Notes: a model not told the origin generated them from the letters alone. A stretch of 64,000 nt of DNA from Minisyncoccota bacterium (GCA_035438505.1 DAORIM010000001.1:7808-71807), one strand, 5' to 3'. Counted from the first letter of the stretch, positions 15,519 through 62,280 are shown. A program made the numbers and translations.

Positions 15519-15546
15519 GAAAAAGCCCGCTTGATGCGGGCTTTTT
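15519..15546. terminator. bidirectional rho-independent terminator hairpin
   Basis: aaaaagcccgcttgatgcgggcttttt between convergent NUDIX (+) and malic enzyme (-) genes. Confidence 0.7.
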
Positions 15547-47382: not shown

Positions 47383-47411
47383 AAAAGCCCCGCATCTGCG
47401 GGGCTTTTTGT
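47383..47411. terminator. terminator hairpin (member of the conserved gccc(c)gcatctgcggg(g)c family)
   Basis: aaaaagccccgcatctgcggggctttttg between rplT (+) and the RNase J-like gene (-). Confidence 0.7.
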
Positions 47412-50858: not shown

Positions 50859-51437
50859 TTATGCAAGTGTCGCACGAATATCAGCCTCCACTTCCTCCGG
50901 CGTCTTCGTGCCGTCGAGCGTCGTGAGGAGTCCGCGCTCCTTGAAGAACTCAAGCACGGGCGCAGTGTATGCGTCATACACGCCAAGACGTGCGGCGATC
51001 TTCTCGGGCGTAGCACTATCTGGACGGTGCTCGCTTTCCGCACGCTTTAACATTCGTGTTGTTACTTCCTCGTTCGGCACCATAAGATCAATAACCCGGT
51101 ACGGGCGCTCGAGCCAGTCCATGACGCTCGCAAAGCGCTCTGCCTGCGCAAGCGTGCGCGGATACCCGTCACACACCATACCCGCATCAGGAGCGAGTGA
51201 AAGCGCTACGTCTTCAAAGATGTAGTTAGCAAACCAGTCAGGAAGGAGCTCCCCTGCGTCATACGCTTCGCGCACGTGAGCGGCAATTGGTCCCTCGCCG
51301 TCCCGCAGCGTCTTAAAACGCTCGCCAGTTGAAAAGTGCGCCCATCCGCGCGCCTCAGCGAGGCGTTTTGCCTGGGTTCCCTTTCCTGAGCCCGGACGGC
51401 CGGTAAGGATAATAGTATTTGAAAGTGATTCTTGCAT
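50859..51437 (-). CDS. adk: adenylate kinase
   Basis: P-loop GRPGSGKGTQ, NMP-binding STGERFK, short LID; start set at internal Met (MQESLSN...). Confidence 0.8.
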   Translation of the reverse strand: MQESLSNTIILTGRPGSGKGTQAKRLAEARGWAHFSTGERFKTLRDGEGPIAAHVREAYDAGELLPDWFANYIFEDVALSLAPDAGMVCDGYPRTLAQAERFASVMDWLERPYRVIDLMVPNEEVTTRMLKRAESEHRPDSATPEKIAARLGVYDAYTAPVLEFFKERGLLTTLDGTKTPEEVEADIRATLA

Positions 51438-51476
51438 AGATATTCCTACTGTATCAGTAATGAAAGATGCGCGCAT

Positions 51477-52046
51477 TTATGCGAGCCCCAGGATCTTCGC
51501 GACCTCTTCTGAGACCTCTTCAGGGGTACGCTCCCCGTCAATATCCACGCAAGCATTCCCCTTCCTAAAGACCTCTAGGGCTTTCTCCGTAAAGCGATTG
51601 TATTCGTCGAGACGCATCTGCACACAGTGATCATCAGCACGGCCAGACTCCCCTTTGCGTGAATCGAGCCTGCGATGCACCTCTTCATCCGATATCGCGA
51701 TATTAATAACCGTAAACGGACGTTCCAAAAATTCCGACGCAGCGAAGATAAGCTCTGCTTCTTCGATCTTTCTGTTGAATCCGTCGAAGATAACGCTTTG
51801 CGCATCAGGATGCGAGAGTGCAATGCGTAGGTACAAGTACTCAACAAACCAAGGAGGCGACAACAGCCCCTGATCCATTTCAAGCCTTGTTCTTCGCCCT
51901 GCTGGAGTGTCTTCAGCAGCAATGGCGCGGAACTGGTCTCCAGAGCCGTACATCGGCCACCCAGTCCGTGCAGCAAGGATCTTGGCCTGCGTGCCCTTTC
52001 CGCTACCAGGCTTTCCGAGAAAGAATACCGTCTGCGGCGATTCCAT
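51477..52046 (-). CDS. adenylate kinase paralog (second NMP kinase directly after secY)
   Basis: P-loop GKPGSGKGTQAKILA, GSGDQFR NMP-site, short LID; ~30% identical to the downstream adk; start set at MESPQTV. Confidence 0.7.
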   Translation of the reverse strand: MESPQTVFFLGKPGSGKGTQAKILAARTGWPMYGSGDQFRAIAAEDTPAGRRTRLEMDQGLLSPPWFVEYLYLRIALSHPDAQSVIFDGFNRKIEEAELIFAASEFLERPFTVINIAISDEEVHRRLDSRKGESGRADDHCVQMRLDEYNRFTEKALEVFRKGNACVDIDGERTPEEVSEEVAKILGLA

Positions 52047-52096
52047 ACTGATTACTCTAGCATTAACGAGCAAAGCCTCCCGGAGGAGGCTTTTTT

Positions 52097-53830: not shown

Positions 53831-54460
53831 TTATCGAGCGCCTGCAGACGCAAGAGCGGCAACGGTAGCGCGCGCAATGGTGAGCTTGTTCTTGGTGCGG
53901 GTGAGGATCTTTGCAATCACGTTCGTAACACCAGCGTGCTCAAGCACGGAGCGCATTGCAGATCCTGCAACAACACCGCGGCCGGGAGACGGGATGATAG
54001 TAACAATCGAAGACGAGTACTTCACTGACACGTCGTGCGCAATGGAACCTTCTGGAGTGCGCTTAACAGTTACGAGGTGCTTCTTCGCATCGCGAACCGC
54101 CTTATCAATAGCAAGCGCGGTATCTGCACCCTTTCCAAGGCCAACGCCAACACGTCCCTTCTTGTCGCCGATAACAACCGTTACGGAGAAGGAGAAGCGG
54201 CGACCGCCGGCCATAACGCGGGCCACGCGACGAACCTCAAGCGTTGCCTGCTCAAACTCTGAGCGCTCGCGAGGGGCGCGAGGCCCGCGTCCGCGACCAC
54301 CATCACGTCCACCCGGGCCCCGTCCGCGACCACCAGGACCTCCGCTGCGGAATCCGCCACGACCGCCATCGCGGGCAGGTGCAGCAGCAGCGTCAACAAC
54401 AGGAGCTTCTGCCTCTGGTGCCTTTGCGTCGGTATTCGTGTCGAGTGTTGTATCAGTCAT
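53831..54460 (-). CDS. rpsE: 30S ribosomal protein S5 with Arg/Gly-rich N-terminal extension
   Basis: Core RVARVMAGGRRFSFSVTVVIGDKKGRVGVGLGKGADTALAIDKAV...; no rpmD (L30) between rpsE and rplO. Confidence 0.85.
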   Translation of the reverse strand: MTDTTLDTNTDAKAPEAEAPVVDAAAAPARDGGRGGFRSGGPGGRGRGPGGRDGGRGRGPRAPRERSEFEQATLEVRRVARVMAGGRRFSFSVTVVIGDKKGRVGVGLGKGADTALAIDKAVRDAKKHLVTVKRTPEGSIAHDVSVKYSSSIVTIIPSPGRGVVAGSAMRSVLEHAGVTNVIAKILTRTKNKLTIARATVAALASAGAR

Positions 54461-55767: not shown

Positions 55768-56037
55768 TTACCAGGAAGCTTTCTTAACGCCCGGGATCTT
55801 GCCCTCAAGTGCGAGCTCGCGGAAAGCGATGCGGGAAAGACCGAAATCACGCATGTAGCCACGACCGCGGCCGGTAATAGCGCAGCGGTTCTTAACACGA
55901 ACCGGAGACGCATTCTTCGGAAGCTTCTGAAGACCGTCCCAATCGCCAGCAGCCTTAAGCTCCGTGCGCTTTGCAGCGTACTTGTCGGCGAGCTTAATGC
56001 GCTTTGCGTTGCGGGCGAGTTGGGATGTTTTGGCCAT
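55768..56037 (-). CDS. rpsN: 30S ribosomal protein S14 (long, non-zinc type)
   Basis: 89 aa, [13 protein letters not shown]...[25 protein letters not shown]. Confidence 0.85.
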
Positions 56038-56111
56038 AAGAAAAAAGCTCCGGGGAGCCGTTCCACCAATCTATCAGCCAGGAAGTAGGCTGTCAAATCA
56101 ATGTGGAGACC

Positions 56112-56135
56112 CCGCAGATTGCTCCGCGGGGTCAT
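56112..56135 (-). terminator. hairpin between inserted gene and rpsN
   Basis: gaccccgcagattgctccgcggggtc. Confidence 0.5.
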
Positions 56136-56139
56136 TGGT

Positions 56140-56688
56140 TTAGGCAGCGTCCTGCTTCGGGATTTGGAGGTACTTGTACACCTGGTTTGGAGGCAGGAAG
56201 TAGTTCGCAGCCCAGAATGGCTTGGTTCCTTGCTGCAGCACGAGCTGAACCCAGTACTTTTTCGCCCTCCCCTGTCCCACCATGCCCCGAAACAAAACAT
56301 GGGACGTGTGGCAGTGGGTAGCGAGTATGTCCGTGGCAAGCTCAGTGAGCTTGCTGTTGAACGCCTCCTGAATCGTGTAGGCGTCCTCTTCGGCCAGGTT
56401 AGACAGCTGAAGAAGCTCACCGTGAGTCAGATACCGCCTTTCTGGCGACACCAGCTCAAAGAGACGCTCGGCATCAATACCAGTCCCCCGCGCCTCAGCG
56501 GTGAGCGTTTCCTTCCTGGGCATCCAGAGCCGCAACTTGAAGTCTACGCGCTGCGTCTCTCGAACCCAGGAGGCTGAGAAGGCAACGCGAGCGTCGTCGA
56601 TGAGTTCTTCGACGTGACTGTGTTCGTATCCCACATCGCGGCTCGCAAACTCAAGCCACGCAGGATCGCTTTTCATCGGAGTTAACAT
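56140..56688 (-). CDS. hypothetical protein inserted within the spc ribosomal operon (between rplE and rpsN)
   Basis: 182-aa ORF with no ribosomal-protein similarity, bracketed by hairpins at 56112-56135 and 56755-56781. Confidence 0.45.
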   Translation of the reverse strand: MLTPMKSDPAWLEFASRDVGYEHSHVEELIDDARVAFSASWVRETQRVDFKLRLWMPRKETLTAEARGTGIDAERLFELVSPERRYLTHGELLQLSNLAEEDAYTIQEAFNSKLTELATDILATHCHTSHVLFRGMVGQGRAKKYWVQLVLQQGTKPFWAANYFLPPNQVYKYLQIPKQDAA

Positions 56689-56754
56689 TCGAGGTCCTTC
56701 CTGAACAAAACGTTCCTCCCCGATACTTCACCATCGAGCGGCATATGTCAAAGA

Positions 56755-56781
56755 AAAAGCCCGCATCTGCGGGCTTTTTCT
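56755..56781 (-). terminator. terminator/attenuator hairpin of the conserved family, directly after rplE
   Basis: aaaaagcccgcatctgcgggctttttc. Confidence 0.6.
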
Positions 56782-56795
56782 TTGAGTGAAGCGTA

Positions 56796-60086: not shown

Positions 60087-60434
60087 TTATTTCTTCTTAG
60101 GCGCTGCAGGAGCGGCCTTAGCTGCCTTAGCGGCGGTGATCTCAGCCTGCTTCTTCTTCTCTTCAAGCTGCTTCTGCATCTTACCTCCGTGGCGTACGAA
60201 CTTCTTGGTTGGCGAGAACTCGCCAAGGCGGTGTCCTACCATTTCCTCGGATACGAGGACGTCTACATGGCTCTTGCCGTTGTGCACGCCAAACGTAAAC
60301 CCAACGAACTCCGGAGGGATCTGGCTTGCGCGTGCCCACGTCTTAATGACGCCGGCATCTGACGGCTTTTTGTCCTGAATCTTCTTCATGAGCTTCAGGT
60401 CAACGTATGGGCCTTTCTTGAGTGAGCGGGACAT
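60087..60434 (-). CDS. rpsS: 30S ribosomal protein S19 with Lys/Ala-rich C-terminal extension
   Basis: [19 protein letters not shown]...[24 protein letters not shown] core; tail ...[23 protein letters not shown]. Confidence 0.85.
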
Positions 60435-60471
60435 GGATAGACAATGGAAAGCCCGCCAAGCGGGATAGATA

Positions 60472-60501
60472 GAATCTATAGGAAACGGGAGTCTATGTCA
60501 A
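60472..60501 (-). promoter_or_regulatory. candidate sigma70-type promoter for rpsS and downstream genes
   Basis: Minus strand reads TTGACA-(18 nt)-TAGATT ending ~35 nt upstream of the rpsS start. Confidence 0.3.
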
Positions 60502-60560
60502 ATAAAGGGCCAGCGTGCTAGGGTTTCCGCAGAATTGAATTCAACCCTGGGAGACTGGTT

Positions 60561-61073
60561 ATGCTGCTCAGACGAGATCTGTACCGGGTCATTACTGACG
60601 AAGACGAGCAGGAGATCGAAAGACTCTTTAAATTGGCGCTCGATCTCCGCTTTAGACTCCCTGCGTACTTGGAGGAAGTTTGGCTGGTGGCTGGAAGGAA
60701 GTACTACCCCGAATGCCACGAAACAGCTCATGCTTTTGCCCAAATCGCTGGAATTGAGGCGGTAGATGGAGAACATGTTGTGCTTACCAAGACCAACTGC
60801 TCTTCGGAGGAAGGTGATTTTGGAGCTAATTACACAACGGTTCTTCACTCTTGGAACGTGTTTGAGGTTCCGAGCGGACAAAAGTTCATTCTCGACGTTC
60901 TACCTGTATACGACTCCTCTATACTGCCCATCGTGCTTCAGGCTCCGAATCCTGCCTACTGGATTCCTAAAGACGCGCTGAGAGTTAATGCGCTCAAACA
61001 AATCCAGGAGCCGCGCATGCAACACCGAATTAAGAACCTGGCTGAGGCAATGCAAAAGGTGCTCGAGAGTTGA
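60561..61073 (+). CDS. hypothetical protein (first gene of the opposite-strand insertion in the S10 operon)
   Basis: 170 aa, no recognised family, host-like GC. Confidence 0.4.
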   Translation: MLLRRDLYRVITDEDEQEIERLFKLALDLRFRLPAYLEEVWLVAGRKYYPECHETAHAFAQIAGIEAVDGEHVVLTKTNCSSEEGDFGANYTTVLHSWNVFEVPSGQKFILDVLPVYDSSILPIVLQAPNPAYWIPKDALRVNALKQIQEPRMQHRIKNLAEAMQKVLES

Positions 61074-61936
61074 CCCCGCTCCGGCGGGGTCTTTTCCTTA
61101 GGCTATACTTCTTCTATATGATCGACCTCAACTCCCCCTCTGCCCGACGCATGGAGCTTATCGGCGCGAGCGTTCTTATTGTTATCGTCCTCGGCTTTAC
61201 CATCTGGTACATGGCCACGCACCAGGCTCCTGAGCCATACGCGCCCTTCCCGGGAACCGTTGAAGAGGTTGTAGAGACGCTTCCGCCTGAAGTGTACGAA
61301 GAACACGGCACCTACTTTGATATAGAGGCCACCTACCCCGCAGAAACGCCCCTTAAGGCGAGCGCGAGCGCTGAGGCAGATGCAGAGGCCGTATCCCTCA
61401 TGGAGGACTTCGTAGACGAGACTATTGCCGACTTCAAGCGCCAGGGCGACTTCGACAATCTCACTCCTGCTGATATCGAGCTTATGGGCCTTTCTGACAC
61501 CCGCAAGGAAAGCATCATGATCTCGTACGAAGAGTACGCAGGAGCGGATACCGTCTCCTACGTGTACACCCTCTACGTTGATACGCTTGGCGCGCATCCA
61601 AACGCCTTCTTCCGCACCTTCACCTTTGACCGCCTTTCGGGAGAAGAGCTGAAAATAAACGAGCTCTTCGTTTCCGGCTCCGACTATCTCGGGCGCCTCT
61701 CCGCTATCGCAGAGTTTGAGCTTTCAAAGTCTCTTGGAGAGTTTGCCGACATCGAGTACATCCGCCAGGGCGTCGCCAAGGATGCTATTAACTTCCAAAG
61801 CTTTGCTATAGACGGCGAGAATCTTGTTCTCGTCTTCCCGCCGTACCAGGTAGCGCCCTACGCAGCTGGCACGCAGGAAGTATCCATTCCTCTTTCTCAG
61901 CTTTCGGAGATTCTGAAGCTGGAATACCTTCCTTAA
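61070..61936 (+). CDS. membrane-anchored protein, possibly DUF4163/DUF3298 (RsiV/PdaC-like) two-domain fold
   Basis: N-terminal TM helix (LIGASVLIVIVLGFTIWYMA), acidic linker, ~230-aa extracytoplasmic region; family assignment tentative. Confidence 0.4.
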   Translation: MTPLRRGLFLRLYFFYMIDLNSPSARRMELIGASVLIVIVLGFTIWYMATHQAPEPYAPFPGTVEEVVETLPPEVYEEHGTYFDIEATYPAETPLKASASAEADAEAVSLMEDFVDETIADFKRQGDFDNLTPADIELMGLSDTRKESIMISYEEYAGADTVSYVYTLYVDTLGAHPNAFFRTFTFDRLSGEELKINELFVSGSDYLGRLSAIAEFELSKSLGEFADIEYIRQGVAKDAINFQSFAIDGENLVLVFPPYQVAPYAAGTQEVSIPLSQLSEILKLEYLP

Positions 61937-61995
61937 GTTGCGCACGGGGTACCAACAAGATACGGTACCCATAGACAGCACAGAGGAGACGAATT

Positions 61996-62202
61996 ATGTG
62001 TGAAGGATGTGGATGTGGAGACCCAGAGCCGCGCGTAAATCCTGCAAAGCTTGCGCAGGCTCGTATCAACCTCCGGAACCGCGGCATCGACACGAATGCC
62101 ATCTCCGACCCTGACTGCTACGGAACGCGTAGCCAGAAAATCGGCCGATGGTTCGGGAGACTCTGGTTCAACTTCAAGATTGCTGCCGGTTGGACCTGGT
62201 AG
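61996..62202 (+). CDS. hypothetical small Cys-rich protein
   Basis: 68 aa beginning MCEGCGCG, further Cys at DPDCYG; Trp-rich C-terminus. Confidence 0.3.
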   Translation: MCEGCGCGDPEPRVNPAKLAQARINLRNRGIDTNAISDPDCYGTRSQKIGRWFGRLWFNFKIAAGWTW

Positions 62203-62207
62203 CGAAA

Positions 62208-62279
62208 GAAAAGGCCGGAACCCTCAGGTTCCGGCCTTATCTCAATTTAAAGAAAAGCCCCGCATTCGCGGGGCTTTTC
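62208..62279. terminator. tandem terminator hairpins (second is a member of the conserved family), bidirectional between the insertion (+) and rplB (-)
   Basis: aaaaggccggaaccctcaggttccggcctt followed by gaaaagccccgcattcgcggggcttttc. Confidence 0.65.
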
Positions 62280-62280
62280 T

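Follow-up and report, generated by a model that had tools for sequence, protein, structure and literature searches.

A probable insulated slot for gene turnover between rplE and rpsN in the ribosomal protein gene cluster of a Paceibacteria lineage

We found that the rplE-rpsN junction in the ribosomal protein cluster of this Paceibacteria (Parcubacteria/OD1-type Patescibacteria) lineage is probably an insulated, lineage-wide slot for gene turnover, and that a 182-aa open reading frame (ORF182), present at this junction in the 64,000-nucleotide stretch of DNA analyzed here (the window), is its probable current occupant in this species. The S10-spc cluster is a textbook invariant, co-transcribed block of genes, and the marker sets used in the phylogenomics of uncultured bacteria are built around it; one exact junction in it is open, holding a different and mostly orphan gene in ~70% of the species of this Patescibacteria clade. 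According to the mechanism that we propose, the ribosomal protein cluster of this lineage would be cut between rplE and rpsN, with a strong intrinsic terminator ending the upstream unit and a conserved sigma-70-type promoter and 5' stem-loop restarting transcription at rpsN. Because a terminator lies on one side and a promoter on the other, the stretch between the two genes would be transcriptionally insulated, and in such a spacer the gain, loss or exchange of a gene would have no polar effect on essential genes, giving rise to a fixed slot whose content changes from one species to the next.

On the minus strand of the window, the genes run in the order ...rplP-rpmC-rpsQ-rplN-rplX-rplE, then ORF182, then rpsN-rpsH-rplF-rplR-rpsE-rplO-secY-adk. 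The spacer between rplE (ribosomal protein L5; 56796-57332, minus strand; NCBIfam L5 equivalog, E 5e-57) and rpsN (ribosomal protein S14, 89 aa; 55768-56037, minus strand; NCBIfam S14, E 2e-33), the first gene of the downstream unit, is 758 nt long, and inside it lies one ORF of 182 aa on the same strand (56140-56688, minus strand; pI 6.1, without a hydrophobic segment). The initial annotation of this DNA had described a 182-aa ORF between rplE and rpsN, in the orientation of the operon and with a hairpin on each side, and all of these elements were recovered on the minus strand where it had placed them. The cluster in the window is also missing rpmD (L30, uL30) between rpsE and rplO, an absence that is the usual state in CPR/Patescibacteria (PMC9297842). 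A second break of the same kind, with a terminator and promoter pair, was found at rplB|rpsS of the same cluster. The locus is not a chimera or an assembly artefact, since five assemblies, made independently from different samples, have the same gene in a context that is identical down to the base. Two long assemblies were 99.8% identical, so that about one SNP is expected in ORF182, too few for dN/dS.

The upstream border of the spacer is hairpin 1 (56748-56785, minus strand; arms 56748-56765 and 56768-56785), which starts 14 nt after the rplE stop codon. This hairpin, AAAGAAAAAGCCCGC-AGAU-GCGGGCUUUUUCUUU, is an 18-nt perfect inverted repeat that folds into a 17-bp stem with a 4-nt loop; it has a GCCCGC/GCGGGC core, an A tract upstream and a U tract downstream, the U tract (UUUUUCUUU) coming 3' of the GC core. 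The predicted fold has a dG of −28.4 kcal/mol and a z-score of −8.7, and 0 of 200 shuffles were equally stable. Judged by sequence and fold, the terminator-like hairpin that the initial annotation had noticed after rplE is thus a canonical intrinsic (Rho-independent) terminator, and rplE, as predicted from it, closes the upstream transcription unit. Because the U tract is base-paired with the A tract on the other side of the stem, hairpin 1 escaped a consensus terminator scanner; being symmetric, it is possibly a bidirectional terminator. A hairpin with a dG of −15 or lower follows rplE in 72 of the 83 relatives with an expanded gap, compared to 28 of 106 coding control windows. The suggestion that hairpin 1 belongs to a conserved family was borne out as well: the motif CCCGC-N3-8-GCGGG is present in six copies in the window against 0.6 expected, at sites shaped like intrinsic terminators.

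As regards the ORF itself, a Shine-Dalgarno-like sequence (AGGAAGGA; 56695-56702, minus strand) lies 6 nt 5' of its ATG. Scored with the host codon table, ORF182 has a per-codon log-odds of 0.128, compared to 0.162 ± 0.107 in host ORFs, while the five other frames over it score from −0.38 to 0.02. The GC content of ORF182 is 0.57-0.58, against ~0.55 in its surroundings, and its codon usage is typical of the host. It could be argued that ORF182 is spurious, a frame that arose by chance at 57% GC in a 758-nt non-coding spacer (a leader, an sRNA, or padding around a promoter or terminator). In keeping with this, ORF182 has no homologue and hence is without comparative support, its AlphaFold2 single-sequence model, built with no alignment, was unusable (pLDDT 38), long antisense ORFs are common here, with overlapping frames of 158 aa and 228 aa, and an ORF of at least 182 codons appeared in 36 of 2,000 dinucleotide shuffles of the gap (1.8%). 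However, the codon score lies inside the host distribution and only 0.4% of off-frame reads of real host genes reach it, the Shine-Dalgarno sequence is good and at the proper distance, and the equivalent slot ORFs of relatives are conserved at the protein level (alignment A3). In addition, Rfam searches of the gap returned only sub-threshold amino-acid-leader and sRNA models, all of them on the terminator hairpin, and thus no family besides terminator look-alikes. We therefore regard a spurious frame as extremely improbable; together, the codon score, the Shine-Dalgarno sequence and the rarity of such frames in shuffles indicate that ORF182 is likely a genuine protein-coding gene.

The search for relatives of ORF182 was extensive. 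There was no family match in Pfam, NCBIfam, PHROGs, PADLOC or PDB sequences, where only insignificant hits were returned, and no match to phage genomes by tblastn. In a word-indexed search of 5.8e9 protein clusters ORF182 matched itself alone, and an exhaustive HMMER scan of 1.84e9 representatives returned ORF182 itself and one spurious match (P0002), which was rejected as a homologue because it is a translated tandem repeat whose score was the sum of six weak stretches. Among related genomes, tblastn gave zero matches in 160 loci, phmmer --max against all gap ORFs gave none below an E value of 0.2, and kinship with c1, the best-populated cargo family at this junction, was rejected at an hhalign probability of 0.7%. 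A role as an anti-phage defence gene was likewise dismissed, there being no match in PADLOC. The initial annotation had held the ORF to be unrelated to ribosomal proteins, and indeed it matched no ribosomal protein family; this, together with its lack of conservation across the lineage, led us to reject ORF182 as a ribosomal protein or an ancestral member of the spc operon. An ancestral member, as the annotation itself had pointed out, would be the same gene at this position across the whole lineage, and ORF182 was found in no relative's junction. In terms of its sequence, ORF182 is a strict orphan with host-like composition, and we infer that it encodes a soluble, non-ribosomal, species-specific protein with an accessory or niche-specific role rather than a component of the ribosome.

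ORF182 would be expressed from an insulated monocistronic unit, by a weak promoter of its own and/or by read-through of hairpin 1. A putative weak promoter, TTGACA-17-AAGTAT (56723-56751, minus strand), was picked out by reading the sequence and by a regex match; its −35 element overlaps the descending arm of hairpin 1 and its −10 element matches the consensus at 3 of 6 positions. When the first 130 nt of the gap were scanned in 74 relatives, a relaxed form of this pattern turned up in 8, compared to 8 of 420 control windows. Since the pattern is rare in the gaps of relatives, the ORF182 promoter is a tentative assignment, and a universal cassette promoter, recognisable in those 8 of 74 gaps only, was rejected.

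The downstream border is more elaborate. The second hairpin that the initial annotation had placed before rpsN (hairpin 2; 56106-56133, minus strand, 8 nt 3' of the ORF182 stop codon) is present and stable, with an 11-bp stem, a GCAA tetraloop (GNRA type), a dG of −23 and a z-score of −5.6, but there is no U tract, the stem being followed by CUCCACAUUGAUUUGACA, and for this reason it is not a canonical terminator. Hairpin 2 recurs with compensatory changes in three relatives (L007, L009 and L011), all of which carry other cargo, and because it is common to relatives with different cargo it is part of the conserved right border of the slot and not of the inserted gene. In relatives whose flanks are 97-99% identical, nucleotide identity recovers at hairpin 2, ~100 nt before rpsN.

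Between hairpin 2 and rpsN, a promoter scan predicted the promoter of the rpsN-rpsH-rplF-...-secY-adk unit, TTGACA-17-(TG)ATAGATT (56068-56096, minus strand). Written as TTGACA-17-TAGATT plus the TG of an extended −10 element, it has 10 of 12 matches; two such sites were found in the 64 kb, where 0.22 are expected, and both precede ribosomal protein units. Of 118 related loci, ~70 have an equivalent site at a distance of 28-34 nt from the start codon of rpsN. When 61 of these were aligned, the promoter columns that showed no variation were the TTGAC of the −35 element, the G of the TG, and the first, second and sixth positions of the −10 element; the start codon contributes one more invariant column, its G, and the 5' hairpin three, while the promoter spacer and flanks vary. 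Invariance at the promoter-critical columns is the signature from which we predict a functional sigma-70-type promoter, and the alignment points to purifying selection at its critical positions. The in silico evidence supports the terminator that the initial annotation had expected in mid-operon, and it strongly backs the expectation that rpsN-rpsH-rplF and the genes that follow have their own promoter.

The promoter was also present in the empty junctions of 68-72 nt (L024, L028, L030, L038, L039, L059, L107 and L152), where it directly adjoins rplE without a terminator, and it was missing from the 36-45-nt junctions of a more distant Kaiserbacteria-like group. Its presence in empty junctions and its absence from the tight Kaiserbacteria-like ones suggest that the promoter is older than the cargo and preceded it, an order read from a neighbor-joining ordering of the loci. 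The proposed sequence of events would thus begin with the internal promoter, which would make read-through from rplE dispensable and would leave the spacer free to acquire terminators and genes.

Immediately downstream of the promoter is a small 5'-proximal stem-loop, GCUC-CCCG-GAGC (56046-56059, minus strand), followed by a U-rich run and then the rpsN ATG. Across the 61 relatives this stem-loop is paired in 92% of cells, and sliding the partner lowers the figure to 29-53%; one of the pairs shows covariation, and the loop in relatives is of the YYCG or GNRA type. Taken alone, the copy in the window is of ordinary stability (z 0.1). The stem-loop may protect the 5' end of the mRNA or serve as a regulatory site.

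In order to place the window among its relatives, we used one genome per species, comprising 66 Paceibacteria/Parcubacteria-type MAGs with L5 identities of 52-88% and 14 outgroups, and a metagenome scan added 80 rplE loci. In the 14 outgroup genomes the raw tblastn distance between L5 and S14 was just 27-208 nt, from which it follows that the junction is normally tight; this agrees with the statement of the initial annotation that the spc operon is normally uninterrupted here. Among 106 distinct loci, by contrast, the distance between rplE and rpsN was at least 400 nt in 75 and at least 1,000 nt in 23, with a maximum of 3,157 nt, and it was 80 nt or less in 23. In ~60 related genomes, the L5-S14 distance had a median of 702 nt and exceeded 400 nt in 44 of 60, whereas the 13 remaining junctions between rplV and secY had medians of −4 to 15 nt and never exceeded 223 nt. 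The expansion is therefore specific to L5-S14 among the 14 adjacent junctions from rplV to secY. As 75 of the 106 loci hold something different at rplE|rpsN, the junction is a variable slot throughout the lineage. Every relative with a different or an empty slot has an L5 identity of ~90% or less, and since no closer relative differs, cargo replacement in the window species is extrapolated from other pairs of species.

These comparisons bear directly on the claim of the initial annotation that ORF182 is foreign, a reading under which it entered a previously intact spc operon in one recent horizontal event, with a mobile element or a distant donor as its source. That ORF182 is unlike its neighbors, is absent from every relative examined and is bracketed by hairpins would fit such an event. 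On the other hand, its GC content and codon usage match those of the host, no donor was found in any database searched, phages included, and there are neither direct repeats nor an integrase or transposase. The junction is, moreover, already open and occupied across the clade, with different content at most loci, and hairpin 2 and the promoter are common to relatives with other cargo. The clade-wide occupancy largely refutes a one-off insertion, which we consider very unlikely. A genomic island, prophage or transposon was rejected along the same lines, for want of integrase or transposase genes, direct repeats or deviant composition.

A single ORF of 110-300 aa on the same strand is the usual content of the slot; in some loci there are two or three genes, or the opposite strand is used. 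The 116 gap ORFs fell into 85 blastp clusters, 65 of them singletons, with the reservation that calling the longest ORF is error-prone in DNA of 55-58% GC, as shown by a strand conflict among L015, L016 and L045, and somewhat inflates the cluster counts. By tblastx, a grouping independent of ORF calling, the 83 expanded gaps formed 50 components with 33 singletons, and the gap of the window had no partner. The Pfam matches of the cargo were mutually unrelated and each was confined to a single genome: GGDEF, thioredoxin/DsbA, a C39-like peptidase, a SAM methyltransferase, a PaaX/Cas2-like protein, UPF0150, PRTase and DUF6524. Among 59 cargo ORFs, Pfam and PADLOC revealed no integrase or other mobile-element gene. 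The PADLOC matches were limited to a marginal one to PglZ and to Cas2-like ones, each in a single member and plausibly all due to the one PaaX/Cas2-like protein, and defence genes are not enriched among these 59 ORFs. Neither was there a property common to the cargo, a hydrophobic segment being present in 27 of 90 proteins and pI values ranging from 4 to 12. No direct repeats or attachment sites flank the gap of the window.

Cargo families are common only to near neighbors in the ribosomal protein tree. The family c1 is a true protein family whose slot ORFs are conserved at the protein level (alignment A3); it has seven members among the 5.8e9 clusters, and every member checked sits between rplE and rpsN. 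Because c1 is restricted to the slot, an origin in situ followed by fast divergence fits this family about as well as exchange. More generally, and as the main rival to exchange, ORF182 and the other slot genes may have arisen or diverged in place, the insulated spacer beside very highly transcribed genes acting, with no import of DNA, as a nursery of orphans whose evolution is so rapid that homology between species disappears. In addition to the limitation of c1 to the slot and the clade, such an origin would account for the lack of any homologue of ORF182 in 1.84e9 representatives in spite of its host-like codon usage, for cargo families that track the ribosomal protein tree over short distances, and for the comparison of L009 with L091, in which conserved and diverged patches form a mosaic within one gene.

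The divergence of closely related slots speaks in the other direction. Cargo proteins were only 26-63% identical where the flanking L5, S14 and S8 were 97-99% identical. In two pairs (L007/L009 and L007/L091), nucleotide identity is ~90-98% in rplE, falls from the rplE stop codon to ~25-50%, an unalignable level, and is back to 98-100% ~100 nt before rpsN; in the remaining pairs, identity declines more gradually or in patches. What turns over is the spacer upstream of rpsN, S14 itself having been conserved by vertical descent (72-99% identity). Fourfold sites were compared in the five closest pairs, from c1 and L026/L027: in four of them the cargo differs by 54-73% and the flanks by 33-34%, and in the fifth the values are 44% and 28%. 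This higher divergence of the cargo suggests that the cargo alleles had separated before the species did and hence were exchanged; since codon bias constrains the fourfold sites of highly expressed ribosomal protein genes, the comparison suggests this early separation rather than establishing it. Furthermore, the GGDEF, thioredoxin, methyltransferase and C39 peptidase proteins belong to known families that cannot have been born in the slot, and several slots hold two or three genes on either strand. An origin in place is thus a possible but unlikely explanation for the cargo as a whole.

We favor instead exchange by recombination among relatives, a process that does not exclude origin in situ. 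Turnover would occur mainly by double homologous recombination in the conserved flanks, with rplE as the arm on one side and hairpin 2, the promoter and rpsN as the arm on the other; few stretches of these genomes are as well conserved as these flanks, which provide long regions of homology. The source of the cargo may be DNA of relatives taken up by natural competence. Precedents exist for both steps. Many hotspots of horizontal gene transfer are without mobile elements, their flanking core genes show elevated homologous recombination, and such hotspots are enriched in naturally transformable species (PMC5635113). In Patescibacteria, ComEC-dependent natural transformation has been demonstrated, with insertion of cassettes via ~1-kb homology arms, and conservation of the com genes extends throughout CPR (PMC10633639). 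It is the absence of integrases, transposases and repeats, the conservation of the flanks, and these hotspot and competence precedents that lead us to favor exchange.

A bolder reading is that rplE|rpsN and rplB|rpsS are dedicated hypervariable loci, in which slot-restricted orphans are born or exchanged under diversifying or frequency-dependent selection. This reading is doubtful in our judgment. If it were true, the hypervariable slots might serve, for example, host or phage specificity in these episymbiotic, ultra-small bacteria, the slot genes would profit from lying in an actively transcribed ribosomal cluster, and ORF182 would be an allele-like member of a fast-cycling functional class of proteins and no incidental cargo.

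The probable turnover slot described here has several implications. Even the most conserved gene neighborhood may host gene turnover once an internal terminator and promoter remove polarity. The slot would provide a defined sample of lineage-specific genes, which make up the bulk of the CPR 'dark matter', with exact borders and matched empty sites, and such a sample would lend itself to studies of how genes are born, exchanged and lost. It is also a possible landing site for engineering, being insulated and having long conserved homology arms in a group that is transformable (PMC10633639). Finally, the findings call for caution in annotation, as neither the operon predictions nor the models of ribosomal protein regulation derived from E. 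coli would hold for this lineage. In the searchable literature, we found no earlier description of the rplE-rpsN junction in CPR or Parcubacteria; a Pseudomonas gene beside rpsF-rpsR, at a different junction, is the subject of PMC9132574. Turnover hotspots flanked by core genes and the splitting of operons by an internal promoter are known already. What is new is the location inside the S10-spc cluster, the single-gene size, the clade-wide persistence and the predominance of orphans.

The spc operon of E. coli has the order rplN-rplX-rplE-rpsN-rpsH-..., as quoted in PMC9297842 from Cerretti et al. 1983. Between rplV and secY-adk, the genes of the window are ordered and oriented as in the canonical S10-spc-alpha cluster; unlike the canonical cluster, that of the window is split at rplE|rpsN and at rplB|rpsS, is missing uL30 and holds an unrelated gene in the break. 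Integron cassettes are likewise small, mostly promoter-poor, single-gene units with no assigned function that differ at a fixed chromosomal site. Unlike integrons, the slot showed no integrase domain among its cargo ORFs and no attC-like repeats at the cassette borders, usually holds one gene and has a terminator and a promoter as its borders; no repeated border element was found between the cassettes of different genomes beyond this terminator and promoter. Repeated horizontal replacement of rpsN, with Zn and non-Zn forms of S14, was reportedly described by Brochier et al. in 2000 and by Makarova et al. in 2001. In those cases recombination likewise would have taken place repeatedly at the rplE-rpsN boundary, but there it is the S14 gene itself that was replaced. 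A close parallel is with the mobile-element-free hotspots of Oliveira, Touchon, Cury & Rocha 2017 (PMC5635113), which likewise combine a fixed interval between core genes with diverse, rapidly changing accessory content and no integrase, and for which the mechanism proposed is double homologous recombination in the core genes on either side, as we infer for the rplE|rpsN slot. Those hotspots were delimited within single species, on the basis of complete genomes, and hold tens of genes, whereas the rplE|rpsN slot varies between species of a family-level, uncultured clade and usually holds one small gene, inside the most conserved gene cluster of bacteria.

The core CCCGC-N3-8-GCGGG, usually situated within AAAAAG...CUUUUU, was observed six times in the window compared to 0.6 expected. 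These copies were located at 15526-15540, 47389-47402, 56760-56773, 60452-60464, 61075-61088 and 62259-62272, and the copy at 47389 is identical in core and loop to the hairpin that follows rplE. The hairpins of this genome-wide family appear to be the standard intrinsic terminators of the organism.

When the rplE-rpsN spacer was compared among related loci, the rpsN promoter of about 12 loci was found 102-116 nt upstream of the ATG instead of 28-34 nt. In these relatives only, the displaced promoter and the ATG are separated by an extra element of ~80 nt, composed of GCGAGUGAGGAUAAC, a variable hairpin and GUUCCCGAGCGAGC, in that order (for example L013:5395-5480, L036:4967-5052, L047:4678-4763, L118:4146-4231 and L144:1757-1842). 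RNAalifold predicted 12 pairs in the element, with compensatory changes in 8 of the 12, and no match to it was found in Rfam. In the ~12 relatives, the element is a candidate leader that would regulate the rpsN-rpsH unit in cis.

The gene slot between rplE and rpsN was also occupied in the related loci L015, L016 and L045, whose spacers (~725-731 nt) are mutually related by tblastx and have near-identical borders. The longest ORF of these spacers is called on conflicting strands (+184 aa in L015 versus -185 aa in L016 and L045), and between L016 and L045 the amino-acid identity (44%) is far under the nucleotide identity (68%), which suggests that the frame or strand was mis-called or that frameshifts are present. 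As this case illustrates, some of the 'genes' in the slot may be decaying or mis-annotated.

Elsewhere in the cluster, two adenylate kinase genes (189/198 aa and ~205 aa) lie in tandem directly after secY on the minus strand (50859-52073), and for both of them this contig's precomputed annotation lists an ADK Pfam match. The product of rpsE (S5, 209 aa; 53831-54460, minus strand) carries an N-terminal extension of ~60 residues with many Gly/Arg repeats (GGRGGFRSGGPGGRGRGPGGRDGGRGRGPR), and the region encoding this extension is the GC peak of the cluster (0.64-0.66).

A second break in the ribosomal cluster was observed at 60435-62280, between rpsS (60087-60434) and rplB (62281-63084/63123). 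This interval holds three genes on the strand opposite to the cluster, encoding 170 aa (60561-61073), a DUF3298 protein of 272 aa (61118-61936) and 68 aa (61996-62202). Beyond these genes, rpsS is preceded by a 5' hairpin, CCCGC-UUG-GCGGG, and by a promoter, TTGACA-17-TAGATT (60501-60473), of the same type as that of rpsN. A 96-aa ORF between rpsJ (S10) and rplC (L3), just past the high end of the window on the same contig (L001:1350-1640), has no Pfam match and may represent a third small interruption. With respect to the rplB-rpsS break, the L2 gene was absent from the available ~230-1200 nt upstream of S19 in nearly all Paceibacteria relatives, whereas in the outgroups L2 and S19 are only 3-89 nt apart.
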